Shown: positions 13,096-38,439 of the stretch, in pieces | Position numbering within the stretch: position 1 is the first letter of the stretch | Layout: each line of letters starts with the position of its first letter | Notes under the pieces: generated by a model | Seen by the model: the letters and a program-made list of their open reading frames with translations, nothing else | Database searches by the model: none | Told to the model about the DNA's origin: nothing | Source of the DNA: Macrostomum lignano | Lineage: Eukaryota | Length of the DNA stretch: 38,439 nt | Assembly: GCA_002269645.1 (NCBI GenBank) | Contig: NIVC01002994.1 | Span: forward strand, 1-38,439 | Reading direction: 5' to 3' | Made by a program: the position numbers and the translations under genes

Positions 13096-13801
13096 GTAAC
13101 CAACTCTGCTTAACTTGCAGGATCTGACGGTAGAAGCCCTGATCAATTGTGGTATCTACTTTCTCGTGTCTAGCACAAAGCCTTGCAATTCACTTGTTTA
13201 CTAAAATATTGAATTAAGAACAATTTCTCATGCCAGAGCAGTTTCTGTTTGGTTCAACAGTAGAAACCACAAGATCGAGTATAAACTGTTTGTGGGGTTG
13301 ACTACTCTTCTATCGCTACTAACAGTAGGCCAGTAGTGATTGAGGAACTCGTAAGGAAATTCATTGAAAAAATGATTTCATTTATACTTAGGCATGCCTT
13401 CTTTGGCTTGCATTTAGGGGACGCTGGCAAAGAATAAGTCAAACATTTGGGTTTTTGTGCACCTGATTCCGTCTGCCAGTATCAATACTGCTTTCATTGT
13501 CTTGGCTGATGCGAGGCTTGCATGTTAATTAAAAAGAGTTACAGGTATTCAGTTTCGCAACTTTCGCAATACTAATGATCGACTAGGCATAATGGCAGTC
13601 AAACATAAATCATTTACTATCTTGGACTCGCTAACCGAATCGAAATTTTCTTGGCACGCGCCTGAACGCTGCGTTTCCGGTTTTCAGGCAACTTTGAGGT
13701 GATGTCTCTGATGCGATCACCATCATGGTATATATTGGAGCAACGCGTGTCCAAATTTACAATTATTCTTTACACTGACTGTGGCGAGTCCCTTACAAGC
13801 A

Positions 13802-14524
13802 ATGGACTTAGGCGCTTCTATCCTTCTGTTTCTGCTTCTGTGCTCCGCGCATGCTCAGTCGCTGTGTCCGAGTCCATTTGCCAACTCGTCCGGTCCATGT
13901 CTGCTTGAGAACACCGAACAAAGCTACTCCTGGTGCGAGGCCAACTCAGAGTGCGCAGCGCTCGGAGGCGAGCTGGCGAATGCTTACAACACCATTAGGA
14001 ATCGAAGTTCCCACCACGACTTGTGGATCGGCGTCTCTGACCATGCCGAGGAGCGCGGCACCAACCGATCGGGCTGGGGGCTTATTAATGATAATGGCAT
14101 TCTTATAACAAGTGATTCACTTTGGGACTATTCAGAGCCAGACAGACCTGTGGATGACTGCTTGAGGATAAAACCGAACACTTACAACGGAACTTTGGCT
14201 AATAGGCGATGCTCAAAAATTTATGGCTACCTGTGCGAGTTCCGGCCGGCGACTCGACCTGCCGCAAAGCTGCAGCCGGCCGCCTGGAGGCGAGTGGAGT
14301 TCAAGCGGACCAGCTACAACCCGAGCACCGAGTACTGCTACAAAGATCTGACTGGGATGCCGAGCTCTGTGAGCTGCGTAGCGGCGGCTGGCCGAGACAA
14401 AAACTGCAGACGCGCGCTGTACAACAGGAGGTCGAAGCTGTGCCGCCTGCTGCTGTTCACCGACGCTCAGGTCGAGTCGGAGATCGAGAACGGCGAGGAC
14501 TGGGCGAAGTACAGCGTGACGTGA
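13802..14524 (+). CDS. Secreted C-type lectin-domain protein with C-terminal PAN/apple-like module (240 aa, intronless)
   Basis: Signal-peptide-like MDLGASILLFLLLCSAHA. CTLD hallmarks: C...SWCEANSECAALGGELA, LWIG, W..SEPD, C...RCS..YGYLCEF. A second Cys cluster (CYKD...SC....C..ALYN...KLCRL) resembles PAN. The ATG at 13802 is preferred over the GTG at 13781. Confidence 0.85.
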   Translation: MDLGASILLFLLLCSAHAQSLCPSPFANSSGPCLLENTEQSYSWCEANSECAALGGELANAYNTIRNRSSHHDLWIGVSDHAEERGTNRSGWGLINDNGILITSDSLWDYSEPDRPVDDCLRIKPNTYNGTLANRRCSKIYGYLCEFRPATRPAAKLQPAAWRRVEFKRTSYNPSTEYCYKDLTGMPSSVSCVAAAGRDKNCRRALYNRRSKLCRLLLFTDAQVESEIENGEDWAKYSVT

Positions 14525-25742: not shown

Positions 25743-26446
25743 CTCTTTAAATCTTGCATCGCCAATCATGCCTACAAGGTACAGTCCAGTTAGAAATGCT
25801 CTGCTTGGCTACACTGGGGTGCATATTGAATAATTTGATTTGGGTTGGCAGTGACTGCACCCAAGGTCGCGAGTCTGTTGGTATTTATTTGGCTATTTGT
25901 TTTTACCCAGTTTTAACCCGCGCCTGTACTGTTTTATGCGCTCTGTCTTTTATCCTACTCTTAATGCGAAATTATTTAAGCTACTTTACGTTTCTCAAAT
26001 TATAACAATAGAACTGCGACTTGTAACGTTTTGAATTCTCTTGATCTTTTAAGCCTAATGCAACCTCGATAGCTTAGAGATTTATCCTTGTGTTCCTTGC
26101 TTGTTATAATTAAACACCAAATTTTCAAAGGATGTGGAAAATCGCTCAGATATGTTGGCCTATGGTACGATTGTGTATAGAAATACGAGTATTACACAAT
26201 ATTGCTGACACGTGTCATTAGCCAGTATGCATTGTTTTTCCTGGTTTTAAATATACGCAACTCAGTTGTATAATTATATGTATAACTTGATTGGTTCTAT
26301 TGCCAACTGCATGGCTTAACAGTAGATGACCTTAACTGTACCGTTTGACCTTCTGCCGTTCATTCTTTATCATTGATGCCCTAACACTGGGCATGGGTTA
26401 ATGAGTGCTGTATCTATCTTAATTTCACTGATTTAGGTCCGTTCTA

Positions 26447-28024
26447 CTGACGCCAATGATTCAGGTCACTGACACCAATGATTCAGGTTACTGACATCAA
26501 TGATTCAGGTCACTGACACCAATGATTCAGGTCACTGACATCAATGATTCAGGTTACTGACATCACTGATTCAGGTTACTGACACCAATGATTCAGGTTA
26601 CTGACATCACTGATTCAGGTTACTGACACCAATGATTCAGGTTACTGACATCAATGATTCAGGTTACTGACATCAATGATTCAGGTTACTGACATCACTG
26701 ATTCAGGTTACTGACACCAATGATTCAGGTTACTGACATCACTGATTCAGGTTACTGACACCAATGATTCAGGTTACTGACATCAATGATTCAGGTTACT
26801 GACATCAATGATTCAGGTTACTGACACCAATGATTCAGGTTACTGACGCCAATGATTCAGGTCACTGACATCAATGATTCAGGTTACTGACACCAATGAT
26901 TCAGGTTACTGACACCAATGATTCAGGTCACTGACACCAATTATTCAGGTTACTGACACCAATGATTCAGGTCACTGACACCAATGATTCAGGTTACTGA
27001 CACCAATGATTCAGGTTACTGACATCACTGATTCAGGTCACTGACATCAATGATTCAGGTTACTGACACCAATGATTCAGGTTACTGACACCAATGATTC
27101 AGATTACTGACGCCAATGATTCAGGTCACTGACACCAATGATTCAGGTTACTGACGCCAATGATTCAGGTTACTGACATCAATGATACAGGTTACTGACA
27201 CCAATGATTCAGGTTACTGACACCAATGATTCAGGTCACTGACGCCAATGATACAGGTTACTGACACCAATGATACAGGTTACTGACACCAATGATTCAG
27301 ATTACTAACACCAATGATTCAGATTACTAACACCAATGATTCAGGTTACTGACACCAATGATTCAGGTTACTGACGCCAATGATTCAGGTTACTGACATC
27401 AATGATACAGGTTACTGACACCAATGATTCAGGTTACTGACACCAATGATTCAGGTCACTGACGCCAATGATACAGGTTACTGACACCAATGATACAGGT
27501 TACTGACACCAATGATTCAGATTACTAACACCAATGATTCAGATTACTAACACCAATGATTCAGGTTACTGACACCAATGATTCAGGTTACTGACACCAA
27601 TGATTCAGGTTACTGACACCAATGATTCAGGTTACTGACACCAATGATTCAGGTTACTGACACCAATGATTCAGGTTACTGCCATCAATGATTCAGGTTA
27701 CTGACACCAATGATTCAGGTTACTGACACCAATGATTCAGGTTACTGACATCAATGATTCAGGTTACTGACACCAATGATTCAGGTTACTGACATCAATG
27801 ATTCAGATTACTGACATCAATGATTCAGGTTACTGACACCAATGATTCAGGTTACTGACACCAATGATTCAGGTTACTGACACCAATGATTCAGGTTACT
27901 GACACCAATGATTCAGGTTACTGACACCAATGATTCAGGTTACTGACACCAATGATTCAGGTTACTGACACCAATGATTCAGGTTACTAAACACCAATGA
28001 TTCAGGTTACTAACACCAATGATT
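26447..28024. repeat. 22-bp minisatellite (ACTGACACCAATGATTCAGGTT), ~72 copies
   Basis: Period 22; a second block of the same repeat lies at 28359-28575. Confidence 0.96.
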
Positions 28025-28128
28025 CATCGATTAACAAATCGACTATCTGAATCTGGCCAGAAAATGGAACCCGCTGCTCCAACCGAACCGCTATTCAAAT
28101 GAATCAGTTTTGGCCATAGACATAATCG

Positions 28129-28358
28129 AGACGGTGATGTGTCTGTGGGTGCAGTGTGGGTATCGGGGAGACGGTGATGTGTCTGTGGGTGCAGTGTGGG
28201 TATCGGGGAGACGGTGATGTGTCTGTGGGTGTATTGTGGGTATCGGGGAGGCGGTGATGTGTCTGTGGGTGCAGTGCAGTGGGTATCGGGGAGACGGTGA
28301 TGTGTCTGTGGGTGCAGTGTGGGTATCGGGGAGACGGTGATGTGTCTGTGGGTGCATG
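28129..28358. repeat. 40-bp minisatellite (AGACGGTGATGTGTCTGTGGGTGCAGTGTGGGTATCGGGG), orphan block
   Basis: Same unit as the DM9 intron array at 29240-29678. Confidence 0.92.
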
Positions 28359-28575
28359 GTTACTGACATCAATGATTCAGGTCACTGACACCAATGATTC
28401 AGGTCACTGACACCAATGATTCAGGTCACTGACACCAATGATTCAGGTCACTGACACCAATGATTCAGGTTACTGACACCAATGATTCAGTTACTGACAT
28501 CAATGATTCAGGTTACTGACACCAATGATTCAGGTTACTAAACACCAATGATTCAGGTTACTAACACCAATGATT
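28359..28575. repeat. Second block of the 22-bp ACTGACACCAATGATTCAGGTT array
   Basis: Direct reading; ends with the same TACTAAACACC...TACTAACACC variants as the first block. Confidence 0.93.
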
Positions 28576-28829
28576 CATCGATTAACAAATCGACTTTCTG
28601 AATCTGGCCAGAAAATGGAACCCGCTGCTCCAACCGAACCGCTATTCAAATGAATCAGTTTTGGCCATAGACATAATCGTACGACTGGGACACCGCGGCT
28701 TTGAAACGAAAAATCAGCTTTAACATTTCTGCCACCCTATAAAGACGATTCCCAAATACTTTTTGTGTGTACGATCGCTTAGCGATAAATTGCTCTTCTC
28801 CCACTAACTCAACATTGAATATTGCGGCA

Positions 28830-30067
28830 ATGTCAACAGTGTTCAGCGCTAGCGGCATGTCTAAGGAGCTCAGGTTGAGCTGGTGTCAGAGGCAGCTGAT
28901 TCACTCGTGCCAGCGCCTATCCGAGCTGGTCATCCCGGCCAGCGCGACAACTGTCGGGGTGGCGCATACGATGATTCACGACTGTCCTCCAGGCGGGATG
29001 GTGTGCGTCGGCCGGGCACTGTGCGACAGCGAGTGGTGCCCCGGGTACTTCTTGATCGGCAGCGGCGCCGTGGCTGATGAATCGACCTCCATACCTGTGG
29101 CCACCGGTCTGCAGCTGTTCGCCGCCTCGTTTGACAGCTGCGTGCGCTGCAAAGACTTCGAGGTTTGAGCGCGGATTGTTGCTTCTACGGGTCTCTGTGG
29201 GTGTACATGTGACTGCTGACTGAACTGCAGTTGAGTGTCTGTGAGTGCAGTGTGGGTATCGGGGAGACGGTGATGTGTCTGTGGGTGCAGTTTGGGCATC
29301 GGGGAGACGGTGATGTGTCTGTGGATGCAGTGTGGGTATCGAGGAGACGGTGATGTGTCTGTGGGTGCAGTGTGGGTATCGGGGAGACGGTGATGGGTCT
29401 ATTGGTGCAGTGTGGGTATCGGGGAGACGGTGATGTGTCTGTGGGTGTATTGTGGGTACCGGGGAGACGTTGACGTGTCTGTGGGTGTATTGTGGGTATC
29501 GGGGAGACGGTGATGTGTCTGTGGGTGCAGTGTGGGTATCGGGGAGACGGTGATGGGTCTATTGTTGGTGCAGTGTGGGTATCGGGGAGACGGTGATGTG
29601 TCTGTGGGTGCAGTTTGGGTATCGGGGAGACGGTGATGTGTCTGTGGGTGCAGTGTGGGCATCGGGAGACGGTGATGGTAAACTCACCATAAAACTTTCA
29701 GGTGCTAATCTATACTGGCTTGTTAAATTTCGATATCGACTCACACCACTGGCTGGCCTGGCAGAGCTCCCGCGAGGTGCCAGACAACGCTCTTATCGCC
29801 GGCACCCGCCAGGGTTTGCCAGTGTACGTTGCCCGAACTAAAGTGGGTGAAAACGCCTACGTGATTGGCGGCTTTGTTCCACACTTGCGCCTGGCCACGT
29901 TTAACTATCAGATGCGGCTGCTGCAGCGCAACCGGGACTTTGAGCTGCTTATCATGGGCAGCAGGACTGGTCTTGAAAAAATGCTTGATCCACCAGCGTC
30001 GTACGACAAAGCTCTTGATACTGGTAAAGCGATGAATGGGCAATTGGATTCTTATGTATTTGATTGA
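28830..30067 (+). CDS. DM9-repeat (DUF3421-like) protein, ~232 aa; exons 28830-29162 and 29702-30067
   Basis: The phase-0 junction GAG|gtttga...ttttcag|GTG gives DFEVL. Two DM9-like repeats: VIPASATTVG...GGMVCVGRA...CPGYF...DFEVL and W...EVPDNALIAGTRQGLPVYVAR...IGGFVP...ATFNY...DFELL. The start codon is chosen by context and is uncertain. Confidence 0.72.
29240..29678. repeat. 40-bp minisatellite in the DM9 intron
   Basis: About 11 units of GGGGAGACGGTGATGTGTCTGTGGGTGCAGTGTGGGTATC. Confidence 0.93.
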
Positions 30068-30659
30068 TTTTTTGCTTTTTTCGCGTTGGTCAATTTTAAC
30101 AGAATCAGTTTAAACGACTGTTAATGTCTTGCCATAAATATAAATTACGTGATTCTGTGATGTTCCATGGAGTGTGTTTCTAGTAAATTGAGCTGATTGA
30201 ACATCTATACTTTCGGATTTCCGTCTTTGCATTTATTAACATTAACTTGCATTAACTGCTGTGCATTAACACAACACTGTATTCCCACTTGACCATATTC
30301 CGGTATTCAAACTTTGGCCATCTTCATTCTTCTAACAGGATTTAGGAAATAAAAAAGGTTTACAAATTAAAATAAAGGAATTGCAAGATTTTAAAGTGGT
30401 TATTGACAGAATGAGCTAGAATAACCTCGATTTCCGGTTTTGCTTCTAATATGAGCAGATTAAGTAAGATAGTAAGCAAAGGATACGGCAAATAAACTTT
30501 CATAGGCGTAGGAACGTTTCAAAAAGTGGGGGGGGGCAGGTTCAGTGACGATTTAGGGGGGGGGGGGGGGGCGGGGCGCACGCCCCCGTCGAGTTATTAG
30601 ATTTTATATATGAAAAATGCACATGATCATGTACCGATTATTTTCAGAATCCATCTTGT

Positions 30660-30780
30660 CAGCACTCATTTTATAAAGCGCCGCAGGCACTCATTTTAGC
30701 GTCGCAGTCCCGCATTTTAGCGCCGCAGGCACTCATTTTGGCGCTGCAGGCGCTATGTTTTGTCGCCCTGCAGCAAAATG
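30660..30780. repeat. Short copy of the 21-bp GCGCCGCAGGCACTCATTTTA family with its unique 3' flank
   Basis: Units and the following CTATGT(A/T)TTGTCG.CCT...GCAAAAT match 20093-20370. Confidence 0.75.
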
Positions 30781-31189
30781 CATTCATGCAAAGCAGCAAA
30801 AACCAAAAATAAGCAAGAAGTCTAAATTTTATTTAAAATGTGAAGGGGCCAGTGTGACAGTGTGATTCGTAGAAGCGCGTGTATCGTATTTCTTTATTTT
30901 CATATGCATACCGTGCTACTACTGTATTCTTCCATTTATTTTAACAATATTCGTACGTATTATTATCGCGCTATTTTTACTGTTAATTGCTTTGTTTTTG
31001 TAGCCTCGTATGTATTTATTCTGTTATTTGTATTTCATTCATATCGTTATTATTTCTCGTAAAGTAGTTCTACTTATGTACATGTACTGACGTATGTTAT
31101 TCTTGCATGATCTATTTATCGATTAATTTGTACATGTACATTGCGCGCCGCGTGGGGGGTTGTTTGTCTGGGTTTTGGATTAAGGGTGT

Positions 31190-31290
31190 TAGTAGTAGTA
31201 TGTTATAAGGGGCTGCGCCACACTTATTGCTCGGGCGCATTGCGCGCCAGCTCGCTGGATGACTCAACCCCTTATAACATACTACTACTA
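31190..31290. repeat. Perfect 23-bp inverted repeat with Polinton-like AGTAGT/ACTACT ends
   Basis: TAGTAGTAGTATGTTATAAGGGG (31190-31212) and CCCCTTATAACATACTACTACTA (31268-31290), with a 55-nt GC-rich spacer. Confidence 0.9.
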
Positions 31291-31713
31291 CCAGGAGGTC
31301 ATGGGTTCAAGTGGGGTGTGATAAATATAAAAATATATAAATATACATATATCTGTGACTGAGGGTGTTGAGGGTGAGGGCATGTGGGGGGCATTGGCCT
31401 GTGGTATATTTCTCAGAAGACAGAATTTCCGGATTTTTTATACTTTTAAAAAGGGGGGTGCCCTCGCCCTCATGCCCTCACTCATTTTGAAAATCACTAA
31501 AAATAAGTGAAAAATGACTAAAAACAGGCGAAAATGGTCTGAAAACAGCGATTTTTTGTGATTTTCAAAAATTTTGAAAAAGTGCAATTTTCACGATTCC
31601 AGCTCTAAAACCATGAGAAAAGTTGGATTCACGGGTCAATTTAATGCAATTTCAGGTATATACAATATGAAAGTGTCATCCAATTCAACGATAGTAAATT
31701 ATATATATATAAA

Positions 31714-31845
31714 ATGGCCTTCAGTAAACCATTATTTCTAGGAAATGCTTTAGATATTCAGTCAGCTATAACAAAACTACCACCCATCTTCGCCACTGGA
31801 AAATACCCAGGAGAACTTCATATTCCAGGGTATTCTTTTGCAGGT
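31714..31845 (+). CDS. PLA2-integrase fusion, exon 1 (44 codons; below the ORF-track cut-off)
   Basis: MAFSKPLFLGNALDIQSAITKLPPIFATGKYPGELHIPGYSFAG is the N-terminal half of a parvovirus-VP1u-type PLA2 Ca2+ loop. It ends in U, as group I 5' exons do. Confidence 0.88.
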
Positions 31846-32725
31846 TACGTAGTGGCCTGAGTGAGGAAGTCAATGTCCTTGCTAGTCATCAAATAAGCAC
31901 TTGTTAAAGTTTCTATAGTAAAAATGGAGCAAACAATTCGAGAAATTCTTCTGAAACCAATTGATGATAAGGTTGGGCATGATCAAATTCTTCATGATCT
32001 TTTCCAAGAAGAGTTAATAATTTCACACAAGATTAAAGTTATTCAAATGAGACTAGGCAGACTATATGAAATATTAGCAGAAAATTATTTTGGATTCGAG
32101 AAGGTAAAAAAGATAGACCTGGTTCACGTTGAGCGAAAGATTGCATTAGAGCTTAAATCTTCTGATAACACGGACAATTCATCAAGTCGTGAAAGGAATT
32201 ATCAGAAACTATTAGACTATAAAAATTCTTATCCCACCTATCAGTTGTATTATGTATGCATCAATAAAACTACAAAGGAACCTAAGAATATTTTACTAGA
32301 CAATGGAATCACCCTTATAACAGGAGAATTTGCATTGAAATTTCTTTATGGTGATCAATACAAAAACATTATAACCAACATTAAACAAGTGCTTAGTGAT
32401 TGGCGACACCTTCAAATTGCGGGAACTCCGTCCGATTCTAGTACGTCAATAACAGCCTCAAGTACCACTTCAGTTGAGAAATCTTCTGAAGGAACACAGG
32501 TAATTCCTGTTCCCAATCGGACTTCGTCCGCGAACCTATGGTTCGATGGTAACAAGCTTGAGGACATGGTGGAAATCCGCAGCCAAGCTCCTAAGTCCGA
32601 ACGAAGTTGACAAGGATATGGAGAAGGTTCAGAGACTTAATGGGGGTGGGGCTGAAGGATCTGGTCAATCCTGATGAAGCCTTAAGATAAAGTCCAGCCT
32701 CTTTCGAAAGATTGAGGAACAACTG
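31846..32725 (+). ncRNA. Group I self-splicing intron (880 nt; IC1-like architecture with P2.1 and extended P5)
   Basis: Conserved motifs: P AAATTGCGGGAA (32414), Q AATCCGCAGC (32574), R GTTCAGAGACTTAA (32627), S AAGATAAAGTCC (32684). Pairable helices: P1 with U31845.G31855, P3 (32407-14/32641-48), P4, P6, P7, P8, P9 with a GAAA loop, and P9.0. Terminal G at 32725. Removal restores an in-frame GYSFAG|PGT. Confidence 0.93.
31924..32610 (+). CDS. Intron-encoded PD-(D/E)XK nuclease, restriction-endonuclease-like (resembles the Eco47II family); putative homing endonuclease
   Basis: Motifs QMRLGRLYE, IDL, ELK and NTDNSSS in the first ~160 aa. The ORF starts inside the P2.1 loop with the element's TAAAAATG start motif. 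The last ~68 codons are read-through across the ribozyme core. Confidence 0.75.
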   Translation: MEQTIREILLKPIDDKVGHDQILHDLFQEELIISHKIKVIQMRLGRLYEILAENYFGFEKVKKIDLVHVERKIALELKSSDNTDNSSSRERNYQKLLDYKNSYPTYQLYYVCINKTTKEPKNILLDNGITLITGEFALKFLYGDQYKNIITNIKQVLSDWRHLQIAGTPSDSSTSITASSTTSVEKSSEGTQVIPVPNRTSSANLWFDGNKLEDMVEIRSQAPKSERS

Positions 32726-33952
32726 CCGGGTACAAATTTAGACAAGAGACTCAATCCAATTACAGACCGGCCTCGGTATGACAGTCTACCAATTAACCCA
32801 ATCGATTGGACTGCTTACTATCATGACAAAAACTATAGAGATGCTGAAAACACTTCTTCAAATCCAGAGGAAGCTCTAGCAAAGAAGCATATAGCTGATG
32901 AAAAAATGATAGCTGATTTAGATGCTATTCCAACCAGTGACTTGTCTGTGAAAGAGAGACTCATTCGAAATCTAGTAAATCGTATTATCAAGGCTAAAGT
33001 TCGGTTTGGATTAGGCATTCATACTCACAACCCCAACAATTGTATAGACTGTCTAACAATTTATGGTAAGGGTCTTAGCTATGAAGATGCAGTAAAATTG
33101 CATAAAGAATATCGAAAGCCAAGAGTATTTAGAAAAATGATTCACTATGCAAAAGACACAATTTGGCATGCAGATATCATTATCCTTCCTCCTGAAAGAG
33201 GTTACAAATATGCTCTCACTATCATAGATGGTTTTACACGTTACGCCTGGGCAGTTCCTTTGAAAACAAAGACGGGAGCGGAAGTTGCAGAAGCTTTCCA
33301 AAAAGTATTTAAGGAATCAGGAAGACGACCAGAGAGACTTTGTGTAGATGAAGGCAAGGAGTTTTATAATCAGCATATGTACAAGCTATATTCGTTTTCA
33401 AAAGACAACATTAGAAAGAAGGATGAAAAGGGTGAATATATAAACAAGATGTTTTCAATTTATGGCGAGTCCAAGAATGCAATGATTGAGAGGTTCAATC
33501 GTACTCTCACAAATAAACTCTGGTTTGAATTTGATCTACAGGGTAATCAGAAGTGGCTCCACACATTGCCAGCTATTGTTGAAAAATACAACAACACAAT
33601 CCATTCTGAGATTCTGATAACTCCTTCAGAAGCATCTAAACATCCTGAGCGAGTACCAAAGCCAACTTTCGAGTATTCAAATGAGAAACCAAACTTCAAA
33701 GTAGGTGACAAAGTTCATATCTATAGATATAAGGAGCACTTTGAAAAGGGTCGAAGAGGATATTGGAAAATTTCAGAAGTGTTTAGGATAAAGAAAATAG
33801 TTTACTCAAATCCCATAACTTACATAATTGAGGATGAGAATGGAGAAGAAATCATTGGATCATTTTACAAATCCCAGCTTCTACCAGCAAATTTTTCAAC
33901 TAAAAATGAGCGCCTATCGAACAAACTGCAAACGGGCGAAAGGTCAGATTGA
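32726..33952 (+). CDS. PLA2-integrase fusion, exon 2 (spliced product 452 aa)
   Basis: In frame with track ORF 32906: PGTNLDKRL...PINPIDWTAYYHDKNY...HIADEKM (PLA2 His-Asp dyad and second Asp), then HTH...CIDC, then an rve core WHADII / CVDEGKEF / MIERFNRTL and the Polinton-type C-terminus FKVGDKV...PITYII.D..GEEIIGSFY. Confidence 0.93.
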   Translation, partial: PGTNLDKRLNPITDRPRYDSLPINPIDWTAYYHDKNYRDAENTSSNPEEALAKKHIADEKMIADLDAIPTSDLSVKERLIRNLVNRIIKAKVRFGLGIHTHNPNNCIDCLTIYGKGLSYEDAVKLHKEYRKPRVFRKMIHYAKDTIWHADIIILPPERGYKYALTIIDGFTRYAWAVPLKTKTGAEVAEAFQKVFKESGRRPERLCVDEGKEFYNQHMYKLYSFSKDNIRKKDEKGEYINKMFSIYGESKNAMIERFNRTLTNKLWFEFDLQGNQKWLHTLPAIVEKYNNTIHSEILITPSEASKHPERVPKPTFEYSNEKPNFKVGDKVHIYRYKEHFEKGRRGYWKISEVFRIKKIVYSNPITYIIEDENGEEIIGSFYKSQLLPANFSTKNERLSNKLQTGERSD

Positions 33953-34328
33953 AACGTCTGATTCACAACTACTAGCTGATAAAGAGGGTGAAGGAATTGG
34001 TGATATGATCAGTGGTGTCACAAACTTTTTATCAAATCATGGAAGTAAAATTGTGAGTGGAGCTGATGCAATAGGTAAAACAGCTACCACAGCGAAGAAC
34101 ATATTCGATGCGAAGAAATCATACAGTGACATGTCTAAAGCAGGTGAGGAACTGGAATATATTAAAAAGAAACGTAGAGATAAAGAAGCAAAGAAAATAA
34201 TGGAAGAAGAGCAACAGATAGCTTCTCAATCAAATAAGGCTATTCAAGATATTGTTAAAAAGGCTCTAGGAACAGCAGAACAGTCTCAAGTGTCTTTGAG
34301 ACAAGGCAATGGTTTGAAGAAATTCTGA
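33906..34328 (+). CDS. Small Polinton virion/core-like protein (140 aa), function unknown
   Basis: Start reassigned to TAAAAATG at 33906. Amphipathic segment after EGEG (IGDMISGVTNFLS), K/E-rich helix and a terminal QGNG motif. Confidence 0.75.
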   Translation: MSAYRTNCKRAKGQIETSDSQLLADKEGEGIGDMISGVTNFLSNHGSKIVSGADAIGKTATTAKNIFDAKKSYSDMSKAGEELEYIKKKRRDKEAKKIMEEEQQIASQSNKAIQDIVKKALGTAEQSQVSLRQGNGLKKF

Positions 34329-34336
34329 CCTTAAAA

Positions 34337-34789
34337 ATGAGCGAGAAAAACACTGAAGCAAGACTCAATCGATATGTTCGAGAGGGAAAACCAAGATATG
34401 TTACTGTAAATAAGCAAAAGCAATATCTTTCTAAAGAGAAGATTCGAGAATTGCAAGAGAAACAGAAAGAACATGAAGGTGGAATAATTCCTCTATTAGG
34501 CTTGCTACCAGCAATTTTGGGTGGTATTGGAGCAGCCTCCGGAGTTGGTACAATGATTGCAAAAAGTGTTAATACAGCCAACAATGCTAAGCATAATAAG
34601 ACAATAGAAAGCATTGAACGGCAAAAACTAGAAGAGTTGAAAAAGGCTCAAGGGAGTGGAGTATTAGTTGATGCGGCTAAAATAGTCGAACAAGTACCCA
34701 GCGAAGCAGTCAAGTGGCTGCTAAAGACGTTTAAAGTTGAAAAGGAGAAACAGGGTAATGGGATAATTCTTAGACCTCATGAAGCTTAG
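34337..34789 (+). CDS. Polinton core-like protein with an adenovirus pX-like hydrophobic segment (150 aa)
   Basis: Basic N-terminus, then EGGIIPLLGLLPAILGGIGAASGV, which recalls the GG(F/I)LP-hydrophobic tract of adenovirus pX. QGSG and QGNG motifs follow. Confidence 0.75.
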   Translation: MSEKNTEARLNRYVREGKPRYVTVNKQKQYLSKEKIRELQEKQKEHEGGIIPLLGLLPAILGGIGAASGVGTMIAKSVNTANNAKHNKTIESIERQKLEELKKAQGSGVLVDAAKIVEQVPSEAVKWLLKTFKVEKEKQGNGIILRPHEA

Positions 34790-34809
34790 TTGAAATTTCT
34801 CTTATAAAA

Positions 34810-36174
34810 ATGGAGAACAAAAAGGATATACTGAGCATATATGAGGACAAAACTTTTAGCTTTTTCAAAAAGAAAGAAGACTATATTAAGATTTCTCCAA
34901 CTCCAGGTAGCACTAATAATCTCAATGTTGCAGGAGGTCAAATAGTTCATGAAGTCAATTCAACAGAGTCATACATTCTCATGTCAGAGGCATTCGGTTG
35001 TATAAAATACTCAATAACACAACGAGATAACACCGACTTGAATACGAACATTACTCTAGAACATAATTGGCCTATGAGACTTTTCTCTCAACTCATAGTT
35101 GACATTGGAGGAACAAAGAAAGTCTATAATGATCCTGGAGAGTATGACACAATCTTAAAGTCCGTAATGTACTCAAAATTAATGAATGAAGTTGGAGAAG
35201 CATACGGATGGATTCCAGACACTGGAGATGCTGGGACTGTTTCTGATATACCTCTAGCAAACAACGCAGATGCTGAAGCTGTGAGAACTGCAGCAATCGC
35301 TATGAAAAATAGACTCAATAAGAAGGATTCGAATACTGGATACATTAGGAGGCTTGAAAATTATAACAATGTCACTAATGCTCCAAACAGAGGTGGAACA
35401 ATCAAACTATCATTAACACCTCTCATTGGGTTCCTTGATTGGCAGAAGATTAGCAAAGGAATTAAATATAAATTCACATGGACAAGAAAGACTAACGATG
35501 CTGAAATTTTCTTTGGAGCTGCCGGGACGGAAGCTAAGTTAACTATTAATAGCTTTGAGATTTGGATCCCTGCTATTACTTTGTCACCCAGTGCTGAAGC
35601 AGCTTTTCTAAAATCACTCAACAAGGACATTACAGTATCATTTCCAGAGAGGGTAACGGTTCCACCACAACTCATTCAAGGAAGTCCATATACATGGAAC
35701 ATAGCCAACATCTCCAATATGCCACTTGCAATCTTTGTAGCTTTCAAATATGACGTAAACAACCCATCATATATAGTTAATGATCACAAGTATGTGTCTT
35801 ACAAAACTGGAGCAAATTCAGTGAAAATAACCCAGCTTCAAGTCAGATTAAATCAGGTGATGTATCCGAATGATTATGTTGAAATTGATCCAGTAGCTCA
35901 AGACATTCACAGAGCGTATGAAATGTACGAAGACATCTGCAGCCGTTTCGGTGTAACTCCTCCATTCAATAAACAAGACTTTCTAACCATCTATCCAATC
36001 TTTTGCTTTGATCTAACAGCTCAAGATGAGTTTCTGGTCAAGAGTGGAGTGAATATTCAATTATTTATCAAGAAGTCAACAAATGTTGAGCTGACTGCTT
36101 TTGCACTAATTCTTGAACAAACAAAGAATGTAATAAAAGTTACCAGTGAATATCAAATGACCCGCGTCGAATAA
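34810..36174 (+). CDS. Major capsid protein (double jelly-roll, hexon-like; 454 aa)
   Basis: Size, beta-strand-rich composition, Polinton MCP-like C-terminal motifs (QLQVRLNQVMYP...AYEMY...YPIFCFDLT) and position between the core proteins and the ATPase. The ORF is intact. Confidence 0.85.
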   Translation: MENKKDILSIYEDKTFSFFKKKEDYIKISPTPGSTNNLNVAGGQIVHEVNSTESYILMSEAFGCIKYSITQRDNTDLNTNITLEHNWPMRLFSQLIVDIGGTKKVYNDPGEYDTILKSVMYSKLMNEVGEAYGWIPDTGDAGTVSDIPLANNADAEAVRTAAIAMKNRLNKKDSNTGYIRRLENYNNVTNAPNRGGTIKLSLTPLIGFLDWQKISKGIKYKFTWTRKTNDAEIFFGAAGTEAKLTINSFEIWIPAITLSPSAEAAFLKSLNKDITVSFPERVTVPPQLIQGSPYTWNIANISNMPLAIFVAFKYDVNNPSYIVNDHKYVSYKTGANSVKITQLQVRLNQVMYPNDYVEIDPVAQDIHRAYEMYEDICSRFGVTPPFNKQDFLTIYPIFCFDLTAQDEFLVKSGVNIQLFIKKSTNVELTAFALILEQTKNVIKVTSEYQMTRVE

Positions 36175-36195
36175 GGTCATTTTTTCTTTTTTTAA

Positions 36196-36965
36196 ATGCC
36201 CAAAGTAAAATTTCGGCATGATCCTATTTTCCCTAATCCTCTTTTATGTTGTATTATCGGCGCTACAAATACGGGTAAAACATATTTACTATTCCATATT
36301 CTTACAAGTCCTGAAAAACTAGTTGACTTTAATGAGTTAGTTTTATATGTTCCCAGAGCATCTCAAATGGATCCAGAGTATCAGTTTCTAAAGCATGGCT
36401 TTGAAAATGGTCTCCCACCTTCTCTTATCAACTCACTCTATCATGTCTACCAGGTGAGTGAGGATGCATCTCCTGAAGATATTAAGCATATTTGTCGAGG
36501 CAGCCGACCTGGTGAGTGCAAAGCACATCAGAAAATTCAGAAGTAATAGAGAAAATTTCTGTCACTCTTTCCCATACTCCAAATGAAGAAATTTTTCATA
36601 ATGGACTAAAGACATGTGTGATATTGGACGATGTTTTGGGAGAGGCTAATCAAACATTTCAGGAAAGTCTGTTTCAGAGAGGCAGGCATGGAAACTGTTG
36701 TGGTTTTTATCTAGCTCAAAATTTTACCAAACTAGATCGCAATACTGTCAGGGAGAATACGACATGTTACATAATCTTTAAACAAAAAGATACAAACTTA
36801 AATCACATTGCTAGAAATATAGAAACGAATTATGAACCCGCTATATTCAAGGCTAAATGTAGAGAGGCTTGGAAAAAGAAGTATGGCTATATCTATATAA
36901 ATACAAGAGCTGATGAGGATGAGCAAGATTTGTATAAGGATGTTCTAACTAAAATCCCATTGTAA
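36196..36965 (+). CDS. DNA-packaging ATPase (A32/FtsK-HerA-like), split into two frames at ~36516-36543
   Basis: Walker A GATNTGKT in ORF 36196-36546. Walker B VILDD plus RGRHGN, AQN and RENT motifs in ORF 36516-36965. Confidence 0.88.
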
Positions 36966-36967
36966 AA

Positions 36968-37695
36968 ATGACTAATGAATATATAAGAGAACTCATTAAT
37001 TTAGCAAAGCAGCGAGAAATGTACAAATCCAGAAATGATGCTCAACGCTATTTGAAAATTGGAGAAGAGAGTTTATATGCAAGAGTGGCTCCATTAGCTC
37101 AAAAACCTGTCACAGAAAAGCTCGATGAATTTATTGATGTCAATGCCAACCTTGTTGATAAACTTCAGAATCAAAAAGTTCCAGTTCCGCAATCAAGTAC
37201 ACCAAAAGGCCGATTTGAACCCTAGAAGTATTTGACAAAATAATTGAAGAAATTGGAAAGATTCCAATAACTCAAAGACCAGCGCCTAGTATACGGATTC
37301 AAAAAACTGATGCTGGATATATATTTGGATCATCTGTAATAGATGTTGAATTCCATGAACAAGGTCGAGACATCATTGTCAACGAATTCGAATGCCATTT
37401 TCTGAAGATCTTGAAGAGTTGTTCAAAATGCCTAAAGTAACTGAAAATGGTGAAGAGCTGAAGCAATTCAAGATGCAAACATTGCAGGATTATGTTAACC
37501 TCATTGAACATTGTAAAAATCCAGCGGCCAAATCAAGTGGGAATTATAAGCAAGCAGTAAGGATATTGAAAGATAATCCACCAGGATATCGAGTAAAACC
37601 GGGATCTGGACTCAGTGAAAGAGTGTTGACATTACTAGCCGCAAAAGCAGGGACATAACAATGTTGATAAAGAGCTAGTAGAATTACTTGCTTAA
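36968..37695 (+). CDS. Polinton hypothetical protein, apparently one gene broken by three frameshifts (~37221, ~37390, ~37651)
   Basis: ORF 36968-37225 continues as LEVFDKIIEEIG..., then ORF 37392-37658, then AGHNNVDKELVELLA*. The final TAA (37693-95) overlaps the next TAAAAATG. Confidence 0.6.
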
Positions 37696-37697
37696 AA

Positions 37698-38439
37698 ATG
37701 GAAAAAGAAATAGAAAAAGTCAACATCCTCTTGAGTAAAAAGTTTCAACGCACATTTGACTTCTTTTCAATTAAAAACCCATTTCGACAAACTCTAGGCA
37801 CTCCTATAAATTTGTATGAAGATCGAGAATACGAAGCTGGTATAAAAAAGTTTGCAGTCTTTGATGCTATTAACAATATTGAAGGAGGCAATAATGAGTT
37901 GCGATACTCGAGGGATAGTGGTAGAACATGGAAAAAATAAAGATTCAAGCGGGATCTTGGGAAGTTAAAAGTCTGTCAAGCGAGATTCAAAGATTGCTAA
38001 CAGCTGCAAATGATTGGAAAGAGGGGGCTATTGTTTTCAGTGCAAGCCTAGACACGCGTAGAGTTGAGTTACGGTTAGCCACAGAGTATCAAGTTGATTT
38101 CAGGGATGCACATTCCAATAACTTTAGAAGACTGTTGGGATTCAATTCGGAAGTGTATTTGAAACCATTTGAGAGAGCTCCAAATCCAGCTCGGATAGAC
38201 GGAGCTAGAAGTGCGATCATGGTTCGTTGTCTCAATATCAAAGGGGTTTTATCACTGATCCAGCCAATGGAAATCATTTAATTGATAAGCAAATACTTTC
38301 TTTCATTCCATCGTTTCTCTGTCCAATGGGAAGTAAAATTATTCAGAGCCTGCAAATCCTGTGTACCTACCACTAACTACAAACATGTTGAGCCACATTC
38401 GACTTTGTCATCGAAGATGAGTCTGGTGTTCTATACGAC
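37698..38439 (+). CDS. Minor capsid protein (penton-like), frameshifted at ~37935, ~38245 and ~38346; runs off the window
   Basis: Joined frames give INNI...NNELRY...W..IKIQAGSWEV..L...LLGF...GSKII..PANPVYLPL, the pattern of Polinton minor capsid proteins. Confidence 0.75.

Follow-up and report, generated by a model that had tools for sequence, protein, structure and literature searches.

Absence of GGNCC from a Polinton-type provirus of Macrostomum lignano with an intron-encoded Eco47II-family nuclease predicted to cut that sequence

Known homing sites are long, often more than 20 bp (PMC3943268) and 17 bp for I-Ssp6803I (PMC3424549). Among restriction enzymes, EcoO109I cuts RG^GNCCY and AvaII cuts G^GWCC (PMC7337904), and Eco47II homologs have been assigned GGNCC (PMC10305163). 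Group I introns and homing genes occur in protist Polinton-like viruses (PMC12220804), and mirusviruses have endonuclease-bearing spliceosomal introns, with 15 PD-(D/E)XK genes located inside introns (PMC12768974). Here we analyze a 38,439-nucleotide (nt) stretch of Macrostomum lignano DNA, called the window (contig NIVC01002994.1 of assembly GCA_002269645.1, positions 1 to 38,439 of the forward strand), which ends within the left part of a Polinton-type provirus, called the element. The element lacks the sequence GGNCC and has, inside a group I intron, the gene for an Eco47II-family nuclease. A literature search, with most subscription journals outside its coverage, found no Polinton for which an Eco47II-type gene is described together with an intron and a purge of sites, and the available portions of PMC10748475, PMC11296320, PMC11131425, PMC2441816 and PMC6286503 hold nothing on such a nuclease-intron-purge system.

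An earlier sequence-only reading of the window had noted, from a scan by eye, that GGNCC appears wholly absent from the element's first base to the window end. A programmatic scan gave 40 GGNCC sites in positions 1-31190 and none in positions 31191-38439 (7,249 nt, GC 0.372), and placed the last site of the window at the same GGGCC, upstream of the element terminus (Table 1). The reading had also proposed counting GGNCC against Markov or codon-shuffled nulls and against all other XXNYY words; in that count GGNCC alone among the 256 words stood at zero in 31191-38439. The number of sites expected there was 8.7 with independent bases, 9.0 with dinucleotides and 5.3 under the maximal-order null; the reading, with independent bases and an assumed GC of 35-40%, had expected roughly 7-12. 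Markov simulations of the segment (300 runs per order) lacked GGNCC in 0 runs at order 1, 1 at order 2 and 2 at order 3. With the strictest null, the probability of a zero count in this segment alone was ~0.005, a value that would be borderline if GGNCC had been chosen post hoc. A further site-free gap, at 26441-30845, lies in repeat-rich host DNA, where 3.7 sites were expected at maximal order.

Full-length copies of the element remove the doubt left by the window. All four full-length intron-bearing copies (17.8-18.3 kb) have no GGNCC, the expectation per copy being 19-21 sites under the simple nulls and 12-15 at maximal order, and none of 100 Markov runs at order 2 or 3 reached zero. The four copies are 96-100% identical and are therefore counted as a single observation over 18 kb, for which the Poisson probability of zero sites is 3e-6 to 2e-9. 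Synonymous-codon shuffles of the open reading frames (ORFs) of three copies produced zero GGNCC in 0, 0 and 4 of 200 runs. The loss is specific to this word: among palindromic XXNYY words in the full copies the second-lowest after GGNCC has an observed/expected ratio of 0.70, and GGCC, GGNNCC, CCNGG and GCNGC are present at normal counts. All four GGNCC variants are gone, which fits a word with a central N and no flank requirement. The reading had further reported no Gly-Pro dipeptide in the element's ORFs apart from the one split by the intron. That is consistent with the zero count and is not independent evidence, since Gly-Pro is GGN-CCN in every codon choice and its absence follows automatically from that of GGNCC.

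The intron interrupts the element's phospholipase A2 (PLA2)-like/integrase gene at a Gly-Pro. Its catalytic core matches Rfam RF00028 at 32333-32716 with 88.9 bits (cut-off 50), a P1 hairpin at ~31841-31859 places a U.G pair at the 5' splice site, the last intron base is G, and the exons are in frame as in the intron-less alleles. Nine copies of the element lack exactly the intron segment and read GGC|CC at the junction. A genome-wide search with a pattern that includes GGNCC identified 23 intact junctions, distributed over 21 contigs: 19 in the window's family (family 1), 3 in a second Polinton family of the same genome (family 2) and 1 elsewhere, and a control pattern found none; two older, diverged copies have GGCCA at the junction. 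Near-identical intron-plus and intron-minus alleles coexist. Among contigs of four sequencing runs, none on record as RNA, the intron-less allele was found in three and intron pieces in all four; the joint expected from splicing of an intron-plus RNA was not among the contigs listed, a negative that carries no information on expression. The junction Gly-Pro appears, from a weak Pfam match, to belong to the PLA2-like domain, and because Gly-Pro is GGN-CCN whatever the codons, the junction site is the one site not removable silently. Some intron-less copies (L013:400-1350 and similar) have a different, longer left end with an extra GGGCC ~660-730 nt upstream of the junction.

The intron-encoded protein scored 30.1 bits against Pfam RE_Eco47II (PF09553; cut-off 25.9), and its catalytic residues D65, E76 and K78 are kept in at least 90% of 90 aligned homologs. 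The structure model (pLDDT 96) had EcoO109I as its best match among 48,161 chains (Z 9.6, rmsd 3.9, 159 residues aligned; next match Z 6.9), and EcoO109I and AvaII stood near the top of the Foldseek rows, after a partial DdmD match. With a PF09553 match above cut-off, an intact D...ExK motif and a restriction fold, the protein falls in the Eco47II family. Its ratio of nonsynonymous to synonymous change (dN/dS) was 0.10-0.16 for intact copies compared between the two families, 0.16 between the window and copy C870, and 0.11-0.36 for 14 of the 15 pairs within family 2, the remaining pair, with 2 synonymous changes, giving 0.83; values were near 1 where a pair had few changes or one copy was broken. 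The gene lies inside the intron, and the intron is inserted at, and breaks, the target predicted for the nuclease; this is the arrangement of a homing endonuclease. Three lines agree on GGNCC: it is the word that the genome lacks, the word found at the splice site and the word that protein family and fold predict. The reading's claim that avoidance supports the predicted specificity is well supported. The purge of all GGNCC points to recognition of five bases, with cleavage predicted as G^GNCC. A narrower site, such as GGWCC or RGGNCCY, was rejected, every GGNCC variant being absent.

Family 2 shows a second arrangement of the same parts. Its capsid is only ~25% identical to that of family 1 and its nuclease ~66% identical to the window's, and it too is free of sites: GGNCC is absent from its ORFs in nine of nine stretches and from a nuclease-bearing copy over 18.8 kb, for which 23 or 12 sites were expected. 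A homologous intron is located at the same Gly|Pro (Rfam 61-71 bits in L075, L076, L115 and L117). In family 2 the intron is short and ORF-less and the nuclease gene is free-standing, directly upstream of the 5' exon; family 1 has the gene in a hairpin loop, and the corresponding hairpin of family 2 is empty. The family-2 layout, in which a free nuclease gene adjoins an intron that lacks an ORF and occupies the predicted target, is that of collaborative homing and was found in this family only. In 41 hand-picked family-2 loci, the nuclease was present in 20 (19 with the intron, 1 truncated), and in the other 21 an HNH-like gene occupied the same slot (18 with the intron, 3 with an intact GGNCC junction); the three intact junctions are thus all without the nuclease. 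The HNH-like gene (L078:2906-3475 and 20 other loci) is of viral type, replaces the Eco47II-like gene and has no Pfam match, and the Atlas lead on its identity lies under the range reliable for named families. A second, different intron-like insert begins at the same GGT| site in several family-2 loci (L092-L107, L111-L114 and L121); it had no Rfam score in the three loci tested (L092, L096 and L101), and its 3' junction apparently drops Pro-Gly.

Outside M. lignano, relatives of the nuclease were found on one metagenome contig and 12 viral contigs, the 12 viral loci coming from a closer nuclease alignment after a broad one gave no usable pattern. In 13 of 13 a C5 methylase gene adjoins the nuclease gene, several of these loci are named as giant-virus contigs, and one pair (L051) matches bacterial plasmid genes annotated as 'Eco47II family restriction endonuclease' and neighbouring methylase. 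These 13 loci retain 1-36 GGNCC sites. Some nevertheless fall well short of expectation: L150 has 1 site with 6-20 expected, and also lacks CCNGG, and L156 has 36 with 112-131 expected. A C5 methylase query gave no match in 137 loci of the M. lignano genome, full-length copies included, and a genome-wide search gave only three weak partial matches, on contigs without the nuclease. Self-protection by a methylase was rejected, none being found in the loci and no close one in the genome, and since the cognate methylase is missing the element is not classed as a restriction-modification system. Several further outside homologs (P0001-P0007, P0009, P0013, P0016, P0018 and P0023) continue into sequence resembling translated intron core, and the intron-encoded form of the nuclease probably occurs in further samples, judging from these translations; another homolog, P0036, is a methylase-nuclease fusion. 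A single-protein scan of viral contigs yielded 31 candidates, none confirmed. Nine of the 12 viral loci were scanned with Rfam and gave no match, and an intron core pattern had no match in viral contigs; an intron 5'-end pattern had six matches there, GC-rich where shown and with no Rfam intron, which were taken as chance.

The depletion is not shared by Polinton families that lack the nuclease. Families without a nuclease match had 4-13 GGNCC in their ORFs in 12 of 12 sets; a closer nuclease-free relative (GC 0.35) has 15 in 4.35 kb, many in a repeated Gly-Pro-Lys stretch, and another (GC 0.40) has 17 in 12.8 kb. Over the sequence that aligns to the window, no GGNCC occurs in the 115,065 bases from 19 intron-bearing loci, 2 occur in 87,492 bases from 15 intron-less loci (junction excluded) and 8 in 30,236 bases from 7 loci with intron state not assigned; the differences from the window at these sites are both synonymous and non-synonymous. 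Loss of CpG as the cause was rejected, because GGACC and GGTCC contain none and family 1 has CCNGG at normal counts. The sequence-only reading had interpreted the missing word as avoidance of a GGNCC nuclease, and this is well supported: two nuclease-bearing families are site-free and nuclease-free families retain sites. The comparison it suggested between Polintons with and without the intron came out divided, since other nuclease-free families keep their sites and nuclease-free siblings are nearly as depleted as the carriers. The interpretation as a whole is partly supported; the data fall short of proof that the purging enzyme was the element's own rather than an outside one. In sum, the absence of GGNCC is confirmed as real and strong, and it is best explained by a coherent nuclease-intron system present in two arrangements in one genome.

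We propose, with a probability of about 0.68, that the element encodes a five-base GGNCC cutter acting as a homing or competition nuclease, made safe by the site purge together with shielding by the intron. The proposal is based on the anatomy, the counts, the associations, sequence conservation, the intron-less alleles, the protein family and fold, and the lack of a methylase in the fetched loci. The nuclease would be a type II Eco47II-family endonuclease cutting the palindrome G^GNCC, derived from a giant-virus-type restriction-methylase pair with the methylase left behind. Self-protection would consist in having no sites: GGNCC would have been lost through synonymous and some amino-acid differences, and the one site that resists recoding, at the conserved Gly-Pro of the PLA2-like domain, would be split by the intron, with splicing restoring Gly-Pro in RNA only. 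Carrier DNA without any GGNCC would therefore be immune to its own nuclease, and within the purged family a five-base cutter would behave as a rare cutter. On co-infection, an intron-less sibling would be cut at ~1-2 places, at or near the insertion site, and repair from the carrier would copy the intron (homing) and would also sweep stray sites from the recombining family; unrelated, site-rich genomes would be cut many times (interference). The A-rich context of the ORF starts may point to helper-driven cytoplasmic expression, and expression would be confined to replication away from host chromosomes. At somewhat better than even odds, we would go further and see here a eukaryotic virus that has restriction without modification, in which a five-base type II enzyme came from a giant-virus restriction-modification pair and serves for both homing and competition, the purge replaces methylation and the intron is the antidote for the only site imposed by protein coding, the free-standing and intron-encoded stages of the proposed route to mobile introns both surviving in one genome.

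Several observations weigh against this proposal. The nuclease is only 13-15% identical to the solved enzymes, and sequence searches of the PDB with it found no relative. Nuclease-free siblings are nearly as depleted as the carriers, with 2 sites in 17.5 kb (C2167), 2 in 17.1 kb (C3031) and 1 in 17.6 kb (C870); these copies without intron or nuclease are 95-99% identical relatives and are not independent. An underpowered test of selection among copies gave site gains of 1, 2 and 3 with 1.8, 2.1 and 1.4 expected. One intron-bearing locus (L138), whose nuclease is broken, contains two GGTCC, both in a left-end segment without alignment to the window. Elsewhere, too, GGNCC is mildly under-represented: in GC-rich families (71 vs 95 expected), in one stretch (5 vs 14 expected) and in host flanks (47 vs 89 or 52 expected). 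The host itself has a GGNCC density of ~1 per 900 bp, and at such a density nuclear expression of the nuclease should be harmful. Finally, the 21 contigs with intact junctions and the 78 contigs with nuclease matches do not overlap, an exclusion that is weak alone, being automatic in family 1 and limited to 3 loci in family 2.

The main rival differs from the favored reading in the order of events, not in the anatomy. It holds that an outside enzyme acted first: long exposure to a GGNCC restriction-modification system carried by a giant virus, either helper or co-infecting, would have purged both families, the intron spreading as a shield for the one unrecodable site and the nuclease being captured only later, because the genome could by then tolerate it. 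We consider this unlikely overall, though the likeliest of the rivals. The outside relatives are nuclease-methylase pairs in 13 of 13 loci, several of them named as giant-virus contigs, the nuclease-free siblings are depleted too, the intron is retained in 18 of the 21 family-2 loci that have the HNH-like gene instead, and the contexts of eight of eight inspected ORF starts are A-rich, resembling late promoters of large DNA viruses. Against this rival, intact sites are common in young intron-less copies (19 family-1 junctions), other families of the same host retain sites, and no close methylase was found in the genome, the three weak partial matches being on contigs without the nuclease.

Less probable still, the nuclease may be a weapon rather than a homing enzyme, destroying rival Polintons, helper virus or host DNA, with the intron as antidote and its copying incidental, and with no difference to the purge. 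Five bases fall far short of the length of homing sites, often more than 20 bp (PMC3943268), rival families in the genome are rich in sites, the family-2 gene is free-standing, and interference by a phage intron endonuclease provides a precedent (bioRxiv 10.1101/2023.09.30.560319). Yet the family-1 gene lies in an intron loop, the frames of several outside homologs continue into intron-core sequence, nearly identical alleles occur both with and without the intron, and the family-2 nuclease alternates with an HNH-like gene in one slot. We give very little credence to a longer site centred on GGNCC, read by a tolerant homing endonuclease whose loose core would be reflected in the purge. Such a site would spare the host, and EcoO109I, the nearest solved fold, reads seven bases, but GGNCC is gone with every flank, the intron-less family-1 junction is flanked by T and A rather than R and Y, and the core of ~164 residues has no extra DNA-binding module. 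Composition or chance, that is, AT-rich codon use with a general dislike of GG-N-CC and no nuclease, could draw on the mild deficit in host flanks and other families and on P ~0.005 for the window alone, but is largely refuted already by 0 sites against 12-21 expected in full copies, by the codon shuffles, by the related family of GC 0.35 with 15 sites in 4.35 kb, and by loss of the same word, matching protein family and splice site, in two families with ~25% capsid identity.

The features of the window are listed in Table 1.

Table 1. Coordinates of the element's features and of the last GGNCC site in the window
Feature	Position	Strand	Remarks
Final GGNCC of the window (GGGCC)	30846..30850	none	host DNA upstream of the element terminus
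Left part of Polinton-type provirus, GGNCC-free	31191..38439	.	contig ends inside the element; full copies ~18 kb
Element terminus	31191..31290	.	begins AGTAGTAGT; within 100-nt imperfect inverted repeat at both ends of full copies
5' exon, phospholipase-A2-like/integrase gene	31714..31845	+	44 codons; last codon Gly GGT
GGN half of split GGN|CC site	31843..31845	+	intron-less copies read GGC|CC
Group I intron	31846..32725	+	880 nt; between GGT and CCG by comparison with intron-less copies; ends in G
Helix	31894..32395	+	arms 31894-31908 and 32381-32395; loop contains nuclease core; short empty hairpin here in family 2
Intron-encoded Eco47II-family PD-(D/E)XK nuclease	31924..32610	+	core ~164 aa (31924-32415); frame continues into ribozyme core
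3' exon	32726..33952	+	starts Pro CCG; rest of PLA2-like domain (weak, E 0.0036) and rve integrase (E 7e-11)
Double jelly-roll major capsid protein	34810..36174	+	PF21738, E 1.7e-13
A32-like packaging ATPase	36196..36965	+	two overlapping frames in window copy; PF04665 E 1.4e-4, just under cut-off

The element, of which the genome has many copies, is by its gene content a Polinton-type provirus. Pfam identifies an rve integrase, a double jelly-roll capsid protein and an A32-like ATPase (the last below cut-off and in two frames), and full copies have terminal inverted repeats starting AGT, with a 6-bp target-site duplication in one of the four (C2696). Six ORFs of the C2696 right arm gave Pfam matches to a D5 primase-helicase and Endonuclease_7 and none to PF03175; a protein-primed DNA polymerase B was found in family 2, and this polymerase is not Pfam-confirmed in family 1. 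The terminus forms a 100-nt imperfect hairpin with AGTAGTAG in both arms, and the hairpin is found at both element ends. In C67, C5112 and C3947 the sequences flanking either end do not pair up as target-site duplications, and one C67 flank is the same as one C5112 flank, which hints at recombination or mis-assembly between copies. In the window copy the ATPase and the downstream ORFs (37698-38439) are split over several short frames. The eight ORF starts inspected (31714, 31924, 33909, 34337, 34810, 36196, 36968 and 37698) all have an A-rich TAAA(A)ATG-type context, which we take to resemble the late promoters of large DNA viruses. Two short intron-bearing derivatives (L136 and L137) lack the capsid region and are GGNCC-free, one of them measuring ~7.4 kb between termini. 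A different Polinton family, inside or beside copies of the element (L042-L043, at C273:174-190 kb, and L034), retains GGNCC and an intact Gly-Pro motif. In the host DNA of the window, an ORF at 13781-14524 has a C-type lectin match and a weak PAN match.

If the favored reading is correct, a frequent cutter can serve as a gene-drive nuclease once a genome makes its site unique, and the rule that homing requires long sites is reversed. A group I intron would gain a selected role, immunity for an unrecodable site, and the two families would represent natural states before and after a step on the collaborative-homing route to mobile introns. The reading also bears on the replication of animal Polintons, since keeping a cutter with ~1 site per 900 bp of host DNA would imply that these elements co-infect, recombine and are expressed at a distance from host chromosomes.

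Type II restriction-modification systems of the Eco47II family (PF09553; GGNCC), with their structural relatives EcoO109I and AvaII, share with the element's nuclease the Pfam family, the PD-(D/E)XK residues and the fold. In contrast to the Eco47II systems, no methylase was found for the element, its nuclease lies in or beside a group I intron of a eukaryotic provirus, and protection is apparently by absence of sites. PacI is a partial precedent, a restriction enzyme that is not known to have a methylase, in a host from which its site is missing; it is an eight-base rare cutter of a bacterium, with no known intron or homing. Mobile group I introns, including that of the PD-(D/E)XK enzyme I-Ssp6803I, likewise have an ORF in an intron loop, a predicted target destroyed by insertion and intron-less alleles. 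The known homing endonucleases differ in that the element's predicted site is of five bases, made unique by the purge of the genome. Phage restriction-site avoidance (PMC6286503) is likewise the selective loss of one palindromic word. The protist virus and mirusvirus systems (PMC12220804, PMC12768974) combine introns and nucleases in eukaryotic DNA viruses; the available text of those reports, supplementary tables aside, names no Eco47II-type gene or purge. In collaborative homing, described for F-CphI and the psbA intron of cyanophage S-PM2 (PMC6083498, PMC3984707), a free-standing nuclease accompanies an ORF-less intron that splits its target, as predicted for family 2, and family 1, where the intron contains the gene, resembles the step proposed to follow. 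In contrast to S-PM2 F-CphI, the nuclease described here would be of restriction-enzyme origin and belongs to a eukaryotic virus, and both arrangements are present in one host genome.

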